Of a stretch of DNA of 64,000 bases, positions 52 to 47,900 are shown one piece after another. Position 1 is the stretch's first letter, and every line of letters begins with the position of its first letter. The stretch comes from an uncultured delta proteobacterium (GTDB taxonomy: Bacteria > Desulfobacterota > Desulfobacteria > Desulfobacterales > JAHEIW01): NCBI GenBank assembly GCA_963706575.1, contig CAVPNL010000003.1, forward strand, positions 224,001 to 288,000, given 5' to 3'. Made by a program: the position numbers and the translations under genes. The notes beneath the pieces were generated by a model. It was not told where the DNA came from and searched no databases. It saw only the letters and a list, made by a program, of their open reading frames with translations.

Positions 52-477
52 CCCGATAAAATAATAGACACCTTAGATTCGCAAAATGCAAAAATATAAA
101 TTGCATTTTGCAAATGCCTTCTATTTTGCAAATCATGACCAAATCAAATATAAATTTAACCCGAGTTAAGCTGGCAAGCGAAATCAAAACAGAGCAATTT
201 ATGTTGTAACGTATTTAAATTATATAGGTTATAACTTAAGCACTTATATTTTACAGATCGATTAACAACCGCTGGTGGTGGTAAAATTTTGCCTATTTGT
301 CAGATATTTGACCCCATTTTGTTCAATTTTCTAAACTAGCGCATGGTTAAAAAAAATGACCTTCAAAACCCAACAAGGCCTTAAGTATAATTTAAGCTAT
401 TGAAAACACTAATTATTAGAATTATGACCAACCGTGTGCGCATTCTCTGAACAAACCGGTCTTGAAATATATTAAAA

Positions 478-493
478 TGGCACAGTAGTTGCA
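478..493 (+). promoter_or_regulatory. sigma54 -24/-12 promoter
   Basis: TGGCACAGTAGTTGCA, with GG-N10-GC spacing. Confidence 0.85.
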
Positions 494-503
494 TAGATAT
501 ATA

Positions 504-586
504 GCAAATGGAATGAAGTTTCCTCCTTTCCTTCATTCCCACCTCCGACGAACCCTGTTAGGTACCCCCCCCTAACAGGGTTTTTT
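504..586 (+). ncRNA. candidate sigma54-dependent small RNA with anti-SD loop
   Basis: Starts ~12 nt after the sigma54 site. Hairpin GGAATGAAG(510-518)/CTTCATTCC(531-539) has loop TTTCCTCCTTTC. A second ACCTCC lies at 541-546, followed by an intrinsic terminator. No plausible protein-coding gene. Confidence 0.7.
551..586 (+). terminator. intrinsic terminator
   Basis: 12-bp stem AACCCTGTTAGG/CCTAACAGGGTT ending in a T-tract (581-586). Confidence 0.85.
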
Positions 587-747: not shown

Positions 748-763
748 TGGCACGTCTATTGCT
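748..763 (+). promoter_or_regulatory. sigma54 promoter for the HDOD gene at 944
   Basis: TGGCACGTCTATTGCT, near-perfect consensus. Confidence 0.85.
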
Positions 764-14556: not shown

Positions 14557-15312
14557 CTAACCTTCCAGCAATTTTTGTTTCCGCAATTTAGTCCGCAAAT
14601 GCAATATGGCCTGGGAATGAATCTGCGACACCCGTGATTCGGTAATTCCGAGTACTTTACCCGTTTCTTTCATCGTCAACTCATCCAGATAGTACAGCGA
14701 AATCACAAGGCGTTCCTTTTCAGGCAGTTGTTTGATTGCCCGGGCCATGGCTTCCTTTAATTCCTTTAATTTTGTCATGTTGAGGGCATCGTCTTCATTA
14801 TTAACCAGATAACTCAGTAGCTTTTCTTTTTCATCTCTGGAGGATACCCCCAACTCTTCGAGACTGATGAAAGAGATGCTCGACATTTGCTTGGTGCGAT
14901 AAACCTGCTCCAGATCAACTCCCAATTCCCGGGCGATCTCCTGGTCGTCCGCCTCACGACCCAACTTCTGTTCCAGTCGCAGGTAAGCAGATTCCAATTC
15001 CCTTATTTTCCGTCGATTGGACCTTGAGAGGAAATCCCGGGCCCGCAACTCGCTGAGCACCGCCCCTTTGATCCGAAAGATCGCATAGGTCATAAATTTA
15101 TTGTCCCGCCTGGGATCGTAACGATCCACAGCCTGAATCAGCCCGATAACCCCAACATTCATCAGATCATCGATATCCACGGTTGACGGAAGATGAACCG
15201 CCAGTCTTTGAACGATGCGTTTTACATAAGGCAAATATTCGGTAATTAACTGGTCGCGGTACGCTGGGTCTTTGGGAATGAGTTTTTTTGTTCGTGTCTG
15301 TGCCAGTGCCAT
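14557..15312 (-). CDS. fliA: flagellar sigma factor sigma28
   Basis: DDLMNVGVIGLIQAVDRYD; RIKGAVLSELR; ITESRVSQIHSQA. Confidence 0.96.
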   Translation of the reverse strand: MALAQTRTKKLIPKDPAYRDQLITEYLPYVKRIVQRLAVHLPSTVDIDDLMNVGVIGLIQAVDRYDPRRDNKFMTYAIFRIKGAVLSELRARDFLSRSNRRKIRELESAYLRLEQKLGREADDQEIARELGVDLEQVYRTKQMSSISFISLEELGVSSRDEKEKLLSYLVNNEDDALNMTKLKELKEAMARAIKQLPEKERLVISLYYLDELTMKETGKVLGITESRVSQIHSQAILHLRTKLRKQKLLEG

Positions 15313-28395: not shown

Positions 28396-29656
28396 TTAGC
28401 GTTTCAGGTTAATCAGTTCATTGAGAATCTCATCACTGGTGGTAATTACCCGTGAATTGGCCTGAAATGCCCGCTGGGTGGTAATCATTTTAATAAACTC
28501 CGCGGCCAGATCCACGTTGGACATTTCTATCGCGCTGGTGCTGACACTGCCCAGGCGACCGCTTTGCGGTGTACCGAAAAGCGCCGGGCCGGATTCCAGA
28601 GACTCGGAATACAGATTCTTGCCCATTTTGGTCAACCCGTAATAGCTGGGGAAATCGGCCATCACCAGCTGAAAAAGGGGCGTCAGCTGGCCGTTGGAAT
28701 AAGAGCCGGTCACGACCCCCTCTTCATTGACGTCCACCGTCCGCAGGGTGCCGGAAGGATAACCGTTCTGGGTCTGAAAGGTCGTGCCGGAGGGGGATGA
28801 ATACTGGGTGAGGCTGCCGTTACTGGCCCCAGCGGCATCAATCACATCCCAGTTAATGCTCATGGGTGCGGCGCCGTTGATCAACGAAGCTATATCGATA
28901 ACGGGATCAGCGGCAGGGGGGCCGGTTAAATTTCCAAAGGCATCAAACACAAAGGTGGCGCCGCCGCCCCCTATGCTGACGTCTCCCGGCAGAGCCACAG
29001 TGGGTGGAACACTAGGCAGCAACGGTCCAGGTGTTTACAGCGGGAGCAGCACTTTTGGTAAAGGTCAGGGTCAGGGGGATGGTATTGCCCAGCGAATCGT
29101 AAACCGTTGTGGTCGTGGCATAGGTGCCCAGATCGGCTGTAGCCGAATCCAGATTGACATCAACGGAAAGTGAATCGGTAGCAACCGGCGGAGAGGCACC
29201 CTGTGCGGAAGCATTGATATTGGTAACGGCGCCCAGAATCAGCGACCCGTCGGGGTTGGTACCGGTGACTTCATAACCCTGTACGTACAGACCGGACATA
29301 TTCACCAGATCCCCGTTGCGGTCGAAGGTAAATTCACCGGCGCGGGTGTAATAGTTTGCGCCGGTATCATCCTGAACGACGAAAAAACCACTGCCGTTGA
29401 TGGCCATGTCCGTGGGGTTGTTGGTATTTTCAATGGTCCCCTGGGTCCACATCGGTGTGGTCCCCTGGAACTGGACCCCGCGGCCGACATCACTGGATAC
29501 GCTGCCGGCCAGCGAACTGCTCAAAATATTGGCAAACGAAGACCGGTTTGATTTAAAGCCCGTGGTGTTGACGTTGGAAATGTTATCGCCCAGCACTGTC
29601 ATTGAAGTTGAATTGACATTTAAGCCGACCATGCCGGCAAACAATGAACCAATCAT
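28396..29656 (-). CDS. flgE: hook protein, +1 frameshift near 29013
   Basis: GDNISNVNTTGFKS; YYTRAGEF; EMSNVDLAAEFIKMITTQRAFQANSR. The two ORFs join at WTVAA/SVPP. Confidence 0.93.
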
Positions 29657-42568: not shown

Positions 42569-43630
42569 TCAGGCAGAGCATTGCTGAATCCGATGCCGTT
42601 TGATTTTTTCCACCAGGGTCGTTCGATTTAATTGAAGCAGCTTGGCAGCCTTATTTTTTACCCATTTGGTCTTTTCCAGTGACTGAAGAATCAAATCTTT
42701 TTCAAACTCGGTAACAGCACTGTTCAAGCAAATACCATCATCTGAAATTTCAATTGATTGGGTTGCGGTATAGCCATTGGCTGCCTTTAGCTCTTTAGGC
42801 AGATCATTGGCAGAAATTTTGCCGGAACCGATGAGAACCACCAGTCTCTCGACAACATTGCGCAGCTCCCTGACATTTCCGGGCCAGGAGTAGCTGAGCA
42901 TGACCTGCAACGCGCCCTCGGAGATGCCCTCGATCCGTCTATTATTATTATGATTCGACATTTGCATGAAATAAGATGTCAGATAAGGGATGTCTGATTT
43001 GCGATCCCGCAAGGCGGGAAGCCCAATGGGAATGACGTACAGGCGATAAAACAGATCTTCCCGAAAATTGCCATTTTTGACCTCTTCTGGCAGATCACGA
43101 TGGGTTGCGGCAATGACTCTCACATCAACTTTGATCGTCTTGGCTCCTCCAACCTGTTCAAACTCGCCCTCTTCCAATACTTTTAGGACTTTGACCTGCA
43201 GATCAGGGCTCATGTCGCCGATTTCATCTAAAAATATGGTTCCCCCGTGGGCCAGTTCGAATTTGCCCGATTTAGAAACCGTGGCACCGGTAAAGGCTCC
43301 CCGAACATGCCCGAACAATTCACTTTCGAGCAAATTTTCAGGAATTGCCCCGCAATTAATTGAAATAAAAGGTTTACTCTTTCGGTTGGAGTATTGGTGA
43401 ATCGCCTTGGCCACCAAACCTTTACCGGTGCCGGTTTCACCTGTGATCAGGATGGTGGTGTCGCAGTCGGCCACTTTTTCGACCAGATTGAAAACCTCTT
43501 GCATTTTTGGACTGCGGCCGATGATGGCATTGGCTTGTTTTTCATTGTTCAGATTTGCCAGAACAAGAGAATTTTGCGTAAATAGATCGGAATCTTTCGT
43601 TAAGGTTTTACTGACGGCCAAATTTTGCAC
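42569..43630 (-). CDS. sigma54 enhancer-binding protein lacking an N-terminal regulatory domain (FleQ/FlrA-like position)
   Basis: Only ~35 aa precede the AAA+ domain ([22 protein letters not shown]); [24 protein letters not shown] before a GTG start. Confidence 0.9.
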
Positions 43631-45926: not shown

Positions 45927-45953
45927 TAAAGTATTTTGGAATAATTCCGATAA
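45927..45953 (+). promoter_or_regulatory. sigma28 promoter P2 of flagellin
   Basis: TAAAGTAT-N11-TCCGATAA. Confidence 0.82.
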
Positions 45954-46106
45954 CAACATCGTAGCCGAAAAAAATATGGTCTGAAAGGAGGCGGGGTGAG
46001 TACTTCGAGACCAGATACGGCAACCACGAACGAAGAATTTAGCGGTATTTTAATAACCCGATTGGCAGAAACGCCAAAATAAACACCTAGGAAAGGAAAC
46101 CTTATC

Positions 46107-46959
46107 ATGGCACTAAGTACAATAAGCTTAACTCCCGGCATGCGGGCCAATCTATTCAGCCTGCAGCAAACGTCCAAGGATTTTGAGATTGTCCAGAAAC
46201 GTTTATCCACCGGCCTGAGAATCAACAGCGCCCTGGATGATCCCATCAACTTTTTCACCGCTCAGGAACACCGGTTGCGGGCAAGTGACCTGGCGGCACG
46301 CAAAGACGGCATGTCTGAAGCCATTCAGACAATCAAAGCCGGCAACGTCGGTGTTGAAAACATCAACAGCCTGATTGCCCAGGCCAAATCGCTGGCTCAA
46401 TCGGCCCTGTCCGCCACATCAACGGATGCCATAACTTTTCGCAGTCAGTATAATACGGTTCTGAACCAGATCAGCCAGATGGCGGCGGATTCCGGTTACA
46501 AGGGCATCAACCTGCTTCAAAGTGCCGAACTAACAATCGAGTTCGCATCAGAAGCTGGCAAATCGACTTTGAAGCTGACCGGTTTCGGAGACACATCTAC
46601 AACTTTCAATATTAATGGTTTGGATACTGAAATGAGCGCTATGGGTTCTGCTTGGATTTCCGGTACGACAATTGATGCGACCGAATATTCAAAATTCCAT
46701 CGACAATCTTGAAACAGCGCGGGGCGAGCTCAGAGTTAGAAGTAAAACGCTGTCCAGCAGTCTGTCAATCATTACGGCGCGCGAAGAGTTCACTGCGCAG
46801 ATGATTAATACGCTGGGCGACGGTGCCTCCAAGCTGACGGAAGCCGATATGAATGAGGAAGGCGCCAACATGCTGATGCTGCAAACGCGTCAGGCACTGG
46901 GTACAACCTCATTAAGTCTGGCCTCTCAGGCAGCTCAAGGGGTTTTGAGACTGTTCTAA
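46107..46959 (+). CDS. fliC: flagellin, Alphaproteobacteria-like type (~283 aa), +1 frameshift near 46683
   Basis: RLSTGLRINSALDDPINFFTA; DSGYKGINLL; C-terminal ADMNEEGANMLMLQTRQALG...VLRLF. Confidence 0.92.
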
Positions 46960-46970
46960 GCGAAATGGAT

Positions 46971-46998
46971 TCAGGAGGGGGAGCAATCCCCCTCCTGA
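46971..46998 (+). promoter_or_regulatory. GNRA-capped hairpin after flagellin (no U-tract)
   Basis: TCAGGAGGGGGA-GCAA-TCCCCCTCCTGA, 12-bp stem. Confidence 0.7.
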
Positions 46999-47119
46999 TC
47001 TGACTGACCTGATATCCGAATCTTTATATTCTACAAATGATTCAGCCTGATTTGATACCAGCACAAAGATTCGCTCATGATTGATCAACCAGCGGTTTGA
47101 AAGCGGTGCTGATTAGCGG

Positions 47120-47554
47120 GTGGCAAAAAAAATGGCCCTAAAAATCACATTAAAACCAAATGAAAAAATGATCGTCAGCGGCGCCGTGGTTACCAACGGT
47201 AATACCAAAAACACCGATTTGATCATTGAAAACAATGTGCCGGTTCTACGCCAGAAAGATATTTTGAGTGAAGCGGATGCGACATCGCCCTGCAGCCGAA
47301 TCTATTTTATCATTCAACTCATGTACATCGATGAAGATAATCTAACTGATCACCAACCCATCTATTGGAAATTGGTTCGCGATTTGCTGGATGCAGCCCC
47401 CAGGTTAGCCGGACACATCAATCAGATTAACGAAAATATCCTGGGGGGCAACTTCTACCGGGCCTTAAAACTCGCCGGCGAATTAATCGATTATGAACAG
47501 GAGGTTCTTAAACATGTACGCGAATACACAGACCCAATCGCTCAAAACATATGA
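47120..47554 (+). CDS. flbT: FlbT-family flagellin translational regulator (alternative start 47132)
   Basis: MALKITLKPNEKMIVSGAVVTNG...VLRQKDIL...ATSPCSRIYFIIQLMY...FYRALK...LIDYE. Confidence 0.9.
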   Translation: MAKKMALKITLKPNEKMIVSGAVVTNGNTKNTDLIIENNVPVLRQKDILSEADATSPCSRIYFIIQLMYIDEDNLTDHQPIYWKLVRDLLDAAPRLAGHINQINENILGGNFYRALKLAGELIDYEQEVLKHVREYTDPIAQNI

Positions 47555-47900
47555 AAGCGTCGACAAAGCCACCCAGTCCGGCCGCGAAATCGAAGCGGCT
47601 GTGCTTACCAAAGCAGCCGTTAAGCTCAAAGAATGCCAGGACGGCTGGGATGCGCCGGATCGGGATAACAGATTAGAGGAAGCGCTGAAATACAACCAGC
47701 GGATCTGGAGTATCTTTCAAAGTGAACTGTCGCGCGAGGATCACGAGCTGCCCAAGAAATTACGTCTGGACATTCTGCGATTGGCGGCATTTATCGATCG
47801 GCGAATTTTCGAAACCATGGCATCACCGGCACCGGACAAACTCAATATCGTCATCGATATAAATAACAATCTGGCCTCCGGCTTGAGAGGTTCACCCTGA
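47514..47900 (+). CDS. flaF: FlaF-family flagellin regulator/chaperone
   Basis: SGREIEAAVL...EALKYNQRIWSIFQ...LPKKLR...IDINNNLASGL. GGAGG RBS before ATG 47514. Confidence 0.9.
   Translation: MYANTQTQSLKTYESVDKATQSGREIEAAVLTKAAVKLKECQDGWDAPDRDNRLEEALKYNQRIWSIFQSELSREDHELPKKLRLDILRLAAFIDRRIFETMASPAPDKLNIVIDINNNLASGLRGSP

Follow-up and report, generated by a model that had tools for sequence, protein, structure and literature searches.

The question raised by this locus is whether the short segment that closes a large flagellar gene cluster encodes an RNA in its own right and, if so, which message that RNA acts upon. The segment lies near the start of the window, as we term the whole 64,000-nt stretch of DNA analysed, and was originally predicted to be a sigma54-driven small RNA that exposes an anti-Shine-Dalgarno (SD) loop and represses late or regulatory flagellar genes by blocking their ribosome-binding sites (RBS). 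The elements named in that prediction are found in place, at the end of the flagellar cluster as claimed (Table 1): the sigma54 box, a 9-bp hairpin with a 12-nt loop (UUUCCUCCUUUC, 519-530), the terminator, and a second sigma54 box further downstream. One boundary required correction, in that a second single-stranded motif had been placed at 539-546; the motif is real, but C539 closes the hairpin stem and leaves CACCUCC as the unpaired portion.

Table 1. Features of the window that bear on the RNA gene and its candidate target
Feature	Position	Strand	Basis or remark
FleQ-type palindrome GTCA-N6-TGAC, predicted enhancer of the RNA's sigma54 promoter	299..312	+	sequence, recurrence
sigma54 -24/-12 box of the RNA gene	478..493	+	sequence; conserved across loci
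Predicted small RNA, ~83-85 nt	504..586	+	start inferred from sigma54 spacing; fold, alignment, model
5' hairpin, loop 519-530 bearing CCUCCUUUC	510..539	+	fold and alignment
Second anti-SD motif CACCUCC, single-stranded	540..546	+	CCUCC invariant in 42 aligned sequences
Intrinsic terminator	551..586	+	both-side changes in 6/12 pairs; G-U pairs on + strand
Separate sigma54 box of downstream HDOD gene (944-1903), outside the RNA	748..763	+	conserved ahead of the HDOD gene in the genus
fliA	14557-15312
sigma54 activator of the flagellar cluster	42572..43630	-	Sigma54_activat and HTH_8 domains
sigma28-type promoter of flagellin gene	45927..45952	+	sequence, leader alignment
Candidate target, SD-like GAAAGGAGG in flagellin leader	45983..45991	+	exact complement of the RNA loop
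Second conserved hairpin of flagellin leader (possible protein-binding site)	46062..46077	+	leader alignments
Flagellin gene, frame broken near 46700 in assembly	46107..46959	+	followed by flbT, flaF
flbT	47120-47554		3' of flagellin gene
flaF	47493-47900		3' of flagellin gene

The RNA gene and its family

The predicted RNA folds at -30.9 kcal/mol (z = -6.06, with 0 of 200 shuffles as good) into the 9-bp hairpin and the long terminator stem, and is assigned to the plus strand because the terminator fixes its direction. Its loop is predicted to be ~90% unpaired, at an opening cost of 0.0 kcal/mol, and carries a motif, CCUCCUUUC, that is identical to 9 nt of the 3' tail of the 16S rRNA of its own genome. 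The strict promoter box (TGGCAC-N5-TTGC) has only 25 copies in this 5.67-Mb host genome, in which neither BLAST nor a relaxed scan for a sigma54 box plus CCUCC found a paralogue of the RNA. A promoter and an intrinsic terminator enclose a conserved, structured, non-coding core, which is the arrangement of a trans-encoded sRNA gene and the self-contained unit that had been predicted.

A DNA query gave matches in 24 of 61 genomes, the host included (18/24 other members of the host's family); one of the 24, in G026, falls on the second promoter, outside the RNA. An exact pattern for the core, written without the promoter, matched 70 stretches in the genome collection, whose record titles name Desulfobacterales, Desulfobacteraceae or Deltaproteobacteria with only a few exceptions. 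After removal of 21 duplicates 73 distinct loci were left, nearly all in Desulfobacterales-like genomes, and in these the hairpin with its loop, the single-stranded CACCUCC and the terminator recur. A sigma54 box precedes 70 of the 72 distinct loci that have upstream DNA, in 67 cases 17-21 nt 5' of the core, and it precedes 47 of the 49 loci found by the pattern alone, of which the box was no part; promoter and loop are thus conserved jointly in relatives, as predicted. The expectation of covarying stems held for the terminator, where 6 of 12 pairs have changed on both sides, and failed for the 5' stem (0 of 9 pairs in 42 aligned sequences), the sequence of which was selected by the search pattern itself. 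No Rfam 15 match overlaps 478-586 at E values up to 10, and none reaches gathering scores anywhere in the window, so that the RNA belongs to no known Rfam family. Neither the literature searched nor Rfam yielded a description of an sRNA for motility in Desulfobacterales; subscription journals and motif-survey supplements, which lay outside this scope, could hold one. At the level of sequence we regard the RNA as a real family, previously uncatalogued, that belongs to the flagellar regulon of sulfate reducers.

A looser pattern scan, which covered 33 of the 64 parts of the collection, returned mostly chance loci (35 of 120 belong to the core family and ~10 more are variants or analogues), together with one subfamily that keeps the loop and re-pairs the stem differently, and two loci with a different stem and the same layout. 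The loci L142 and L207 each present a sigma54 unit of different stem sequence, with a UCCUCC-containing hairpin top followed by CCUCC and a long terminator, and could be either a distant homologue or an analogue. A model match in G097 (E = 2e-4) lacks the loop and was removed before carriers were counted.

The unit is flanked by a divergent upstream gene without assigned family and by the HDOD gene with its own sigma54 box. Instead of a trans-acting RNA, it might be a cis-acting element of the gene that follows, whether leader or attenuator, or it might supply the RBS and start of a minus-strand gene for a small peptide. In the window that strand does read GGAGG, 5 nt and ATG, opening a 51-codon frame. 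Across the 73 loci, however, this frame varies from 5 to 125 codons, with nothing shared outside the RNA core, and promoter, U-tract and G-U pairs all point to the plus strand. The first downstream ORF lies on the opposite strand in 33 of the 73 loci (on the same strand in 28, with none in 12), and in the genus the downstream gene is served by its own sigma54 box. The convergent ORFs and the variable minus-strand frame therefore argue that the unit is neither leader nor peptide gene, either of which we regard as highly improbable, in keeping with the earlier view that it was unlikely to be a mere leader. A minus-strand sponge of the CsrB/RsmZ type was also considered and rejected, its GGA motifs lying opposite the strand of the promoter and terminator, with PF02599 not found in the host genome. 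Seven protein clusters recur among the neighbours (FlgL, FlgK, a GGDEF protein, an HTH protein, one that we take to be CheW-like, and two uncharacterised proteins), and at least 59 of the 73 loci lie next to a member of one of them; no member of the RNA family was found 3' of flgL in 13 non-carriers. Directly past the terminator, at 592-640, lie conserved TGTCAA/TTGGCA repeats, at which an activator of the sigma54 box at 748 probably binds.

Parts of the stretch occur in 19 sequencing runs, of which 12 are recorded as RNA. The core is covered by contigs from 8 RNA libraries, but these extend through the promoter or beyond the terminator and are therefore no evidence of expression, DNA carry-over being possible. 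Three RNA runs listed as the same sample contain almost none of the stretch's words, which is not proof of absence.

Link to the flagellar regulon

The FleQ-type palindrome lies ~175-179 nt 5' of the RNA promoter, and a copy within one mismatch occurs at -190..-161 in 43 of 70 loci, as against a mean of 0.8 and a maximum of 4 in shuffled sequence. In its strict form it precedes 4 of the 37 intergenic sigma54 boxes of the host genome, all four of them at the flagellar cluster. It resembles the proposed FleQ consensus GTCaNTAAAtTGAC (PMC6120874), which the available part of that report calls unreliable in two pseudomonads, the study's own species. The sigma54 activator encoded in the flagellar cluster is, by its domains, a candidate FleQ/FlrA-like activator of the RNA.

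The distribution of the RNA points in the same direction. Carriers, defined by a strong model match, number 14 among 151 evenly sampled genomes of the order and come from 8 families; flhA is present in all 14, as compared with 77 of the 151 genomes overall (Fisher p = 6.6e-5, a value overstated by kinship, since kin are not independent). The assignment of the RNA to the flagellar class is thereby upheld, by an enhancer-like palindrome common to flagellar promoters and by co-occurrence with flhA; at the level of sequence it has the -24/-12 box, the shared enhancer and the restriction to flagellated genomes of a sigma54 flagellar regulon member. It is, then, a conserved stand-alone sRNA gene of flagellated Desulfobacterales, whose transcription probably depends on sigma54 and on the flagellar master activator. 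The FleQ-type palindrome, the restriction to genomes with flhA and the candidate target in a flagellin leader are new elements for this RNA family.

The flagellin leader and its candidate target site

When 4,994 genes of the host genome, called by a simple ORF caller, were ranked by energy of the loop duplex at their start sites, no flagellar gene was singled out (flagellin ranks 544/4,994 and flgM 1,226/4,994), and the ranking is uninformative because strong SDs are common. The longest perfect complements of the RNA genome-wide are at most 16 nt, with nothing specific among them. Two nearby candidates were rejected: the downstream HDOD gene, which ranks 96 in the host genome but has an SD that is not conserved, and a response-regulator gene, whose upstream 9-mer was found in neither of the two relatives that offered usable sequence. 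The predicted blocking of ribosome-binding sites thus survives in altered form, the best candidate being not the RBS at a start codon but an SD-like site in the flagellin leader. In this leader of ~148 nt, GAAAGGAGG lies ~120 nt (124 here) 5' of the AUG, without a conserved start codon of its own; any start codon is found 3-12 nt 3' of it in only 8 of 36 leaders, at varying offsets. The site occupies +21..+28 from the inferred start, exposed on the 5' side of a hairpin loop, and net pairing with the RNA is predicted at ~-12.4 kcal/mol there versus ~-3 at the true ribosome-binding site.

Of 31 carriers, 29 have the exact site and the remaining two differ from it by a single base, whereas only 5 of 20 non-carriers have it in exact form; the background is 14 of 4,994 host genes with the 9-mer upstream. 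These counts leave out G009, which has no start in its locus, and G014 and G018, which are 74-78% complete and have the site, with the RNA not found; taken as non-carriers, the latter two would bring the figure to 7/22. The site is likewise present in two carriers with another, FliC-like type of flagellin (L295, L296). On a quick FlhA tree, in which the G131 row (wrong frame) was ignored, presence of the RNA requires at least five changes; RNA and site are jointly present or jointly missing in the sister pairs G082/G146 and G042/G081, and G122, which stands beside G027, lacks both. Loop and site gave no sign of compensatory change, since G082 and G181 have altered loops but unchanged sites. 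In the re-paired subfamily (G073, G141) there were only weak Flagellin_N matches, of FlgL-like size.

Non-carriers with the site, which number seven if near variants are counted, fall into four lineages; a sensitive model search for the RNA family found nothing in four of the seven, and one of the four site-only lineages has an unrelated sigma54 anti-SD RNA. Within the host genome, this 9-mer also lies upstream of 13 other genes, roughly half of which appear to encode periplasmic or secreted proteins, and 59 of the 92 genomic copies are ordinary SDs. As the loop matches the 16S tail, pairing with the ribosome may be enough to explain why the leader site is retained, and complementarity by itself proves nothing. 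The pattern in which the RNA implies the site, and the site does not imply the RNA, fits a leader element with a ribosome-dependent role of its own that was later opposed by the RNA, and it therefore favours an early RNA of the sigma54 class that competes with the 30S subunit.

The reading that we prefer, at a probability of roughly 0.45, is that a sigma54-dependent sRNA pairs through its 16S-tail-mimicking loop with the upstream leader site and so delays flagellin synthesis. The RNA would be made early, alongside the basal-body and motor genes. Ordinarily 30S subunits would dock at the leader site, which would serve for standby or stabilisation and so raise flagellin output, and the RNA would compete with them there through a loop-loop contact of 9-10 bp for which no chaperone should be needed. 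Flagellin would be damped until its sigma28-driven message exceeds the RNA, in action beside FlgM, which is found in the host genome, and FlbT, itself a partial precedent as described in the available part of one report (PMC3930126).

Alternatively, an RNA of the flagellar regulon might repress many messages with strong SDs at their start sites, those for periplasmic binding proteins for example, with flagellin at most one target among them. The 3' arm and tail of the RNA would then cover SD, spacer and AUG, and their complement does read SD, spacer, AUG and AAG; the best start-site matches in the host genome include several Met-Lys or Met-Arg proteins of secreted appearance, and unrelated sigma54 RNAs in the order share a layout of anti-SD plus anti-AUG. 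Moreover, both anti-SD motifs are invariant, and pairing with the flagellin leader accounts for only one. We nonetheless think broad repression somewhat unlikely: the energies behind those matches are uninformative for the reason already given, and the association of 29/31 versus 5/20 would be left unexplained.

That pairing at the leader site would repress flagellin, rather than activate it, is suggested by analogy. The sign could be the opposite, with the RNA shielding the leader from RNase J or loosening repression by FlbT and so raising flagellin, in the manner of RoxS and yflS (PMC5419742, in the part of that account available). The host genome encodes both RNase J and FlbT, and the site is only 21-28 nt from the inferred 5' end of the message; RoxS, however, binds at the extreme 5' end, whereas the present site stands behind a 5' stem, and its persistence without the RNA in four lineages better fits a ribosome-dependent enhancer that the RNA opposes, which makes a stabilising role improbable. 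We consider it quite improbable that the leader is instead a sponge, an abundant sigma28 message that titrates the RNA and frees other targets after hook completion, or that the RNA is a decoy for a protein reading the 16S tail. A loop-exposed site far from the start codon would suit a sponge, and the 5' stem, fixed in sequence and not covarying, would suit a decoy, as protein-bound RNAs often have stems fixed in sequence rather than covarying. Yet the search pattern selected this stem sequence, one subfamily re-pairs the stem, and neither a further target nor a protein partner was identified.

Returning to competition between RNA and ribosome at the leader, neither Hfq, LSm, CsrA (PF02599) nor ProQ (PF04352) was found in the host genome, which is 91.8% complete. 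It is possible, and proposed only tentatively, that a chaperone-free and literal mimic of the 16S tail gates flagellin at a 30S docking site within a hybrid circuit, as one of several sigma54 anti-SD RNAs that evolved separately across Desulfobacterales. The flagellar genes themselves have a hybrid character (46107-47900 with 14557-15312), combining a flagellin of alphaproteobacterial type, flbT and flaF with a sigma28-type promoter and FlgM; only one flagellin gene was found in the host genome. The flagellin of most relatives has an open frame of ~270-310 aa, and because these are intact, the broken flagellin frame near 46700, like the split flgE (28396-29656), probably reflects assembly indels.

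The leader (45959-46106) is itself a conserved, structured RNA, with a nested hairpin at its 5' end and a hairpin of GGC-AAGAA-GCC type near the RBS, and has no match in Rfam. The latter hairpin may be the FlbT site in leaders of the FlbT type, whereas its loop reads AAGGAU in the FliC-type leaders L295 and L296, which we take to resemble a CsrA site. In the flagellin leader of G053 (L229) the SD-like site is duplicated, and for the second copy the potential pairing with the RNA runs to 14 contiguous bases, reaching the stem. Elsewhere in the host genome, nine genes (on C1, C5, C6, C9, C14, C15 and C18), most of them for apparently periplasmic or secreted proteins, have GAAAGGAGGTG 75-160 nt 5' of the called start; these copies are possible stabiliser sites or short upstream ORFs.

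Known systems and related RNAs

Among known systems the closest in action is FlaX of Vibrio cholerae, an RpoN-dependent sRNA that acts as a repressor of flaB, a FliA-class flagellin gene, by way of the RBS plus two SD-like standby sites (PMC11879080). The predicted likeness extends to an RpoN-dependent flagellar sRNA, a FliA-class flagellin leader, SD-like single-stranded sites 5' of the RBS and a reinforced order of the hierarchy, the Desulfobacterales RNA having a complementary SD-like site, with pairing predicted, upstream in a sigma28 flagellin leader. FlaX, however, is released by RNase E from the flaA 3'-UTR, depends on ProQ and acts at three sites (PMC11879080), whereas the RNA described here has its own promoter and terminator, one predicted upstream site, a divergent upstream gene, a flagellin gene 45 kb away, and a host genome in which ProQ was not found. 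Because it is stand-alone and without ProQ it is not a member of FlaX; it would appear to work most like FlaX, a likening made by description and predicted site.

The STAB-SD of cry3A mRNA presumably has the same 9-mer as the flagellin leader site. It too is SD-like, lies far upstream and binds 30S without initiation, but it stands at a processed 5' end in Bacillus, and the available part of the report mentions no antagonist sRNA (PMC4113751); RNase J, which is relevant to this likeness, is present in the host genome as noted. The Campylobacter jejuni RNAs CJnc230/FlmE and CJnc170/FlmR (CjNC1/4) are likewise sRNAs of the flagellar hierarchy that pair with SD regions; as far as the available text goes, CJnc230 is RpoN-dependent and CjNC1/4 repress reporters without dependence on Hfq (PMC11187230, PMC4626219). 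In the same accounts CJnc230 is processed from the flgE mRNA and represses flgM, leading to more flagellin, whereas flgM ranks low in the present case, and CJnc170 is driven by sigma28. The cuckoo RNAs (PMC4615179) and NfeR1 of alphaproteobacteria also carry an anti-SD motif in a hairpin loop; cuckoo RNAs have 2-4 hairpins, each with CCUCCUCCC, on variable stems, as distinct from the single hairpin here, with its fixed stem, its loop UUUCCUCCUUUC carrying CCUCCUUUC, and no Rfam match. Pxr, an sRNA of the former deltaproteobacterium Myxococcus, likewise stands alone and has a predicted sigma54 promoter preceded by an enhancer region; it differs in that it controls fruiting-body development and has three stem-loops (PMC5684412).

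If the preferred reading is correct, a distant phylum would have evolved its own control of flagellin in the manner of FlaX, through standby sites and with neither Hfq nor ProQ, and SD-like sites upstream would form a class of sRNA-controlled elements. The whole predicted circuit is at hand, comprising enhancer, promoter, RNA seed and target site, and can be tested without culturing the host.

Other Desulfobacterales (L302, L305, L308, L310, L311, L312, L336-L338) have short sigma54 units with a single-stranded anti-SD motif and a hairpin, and without the 5' stem of this family. Possibly these are separate sRNA families, in which case sulfate reducers would have turned repeatedly to mimicry of the 16S tail as a means of regulation. 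Most of them include an anti-AUG (UUCAU...CCUCCUU), and for the first six the terminators were folded.
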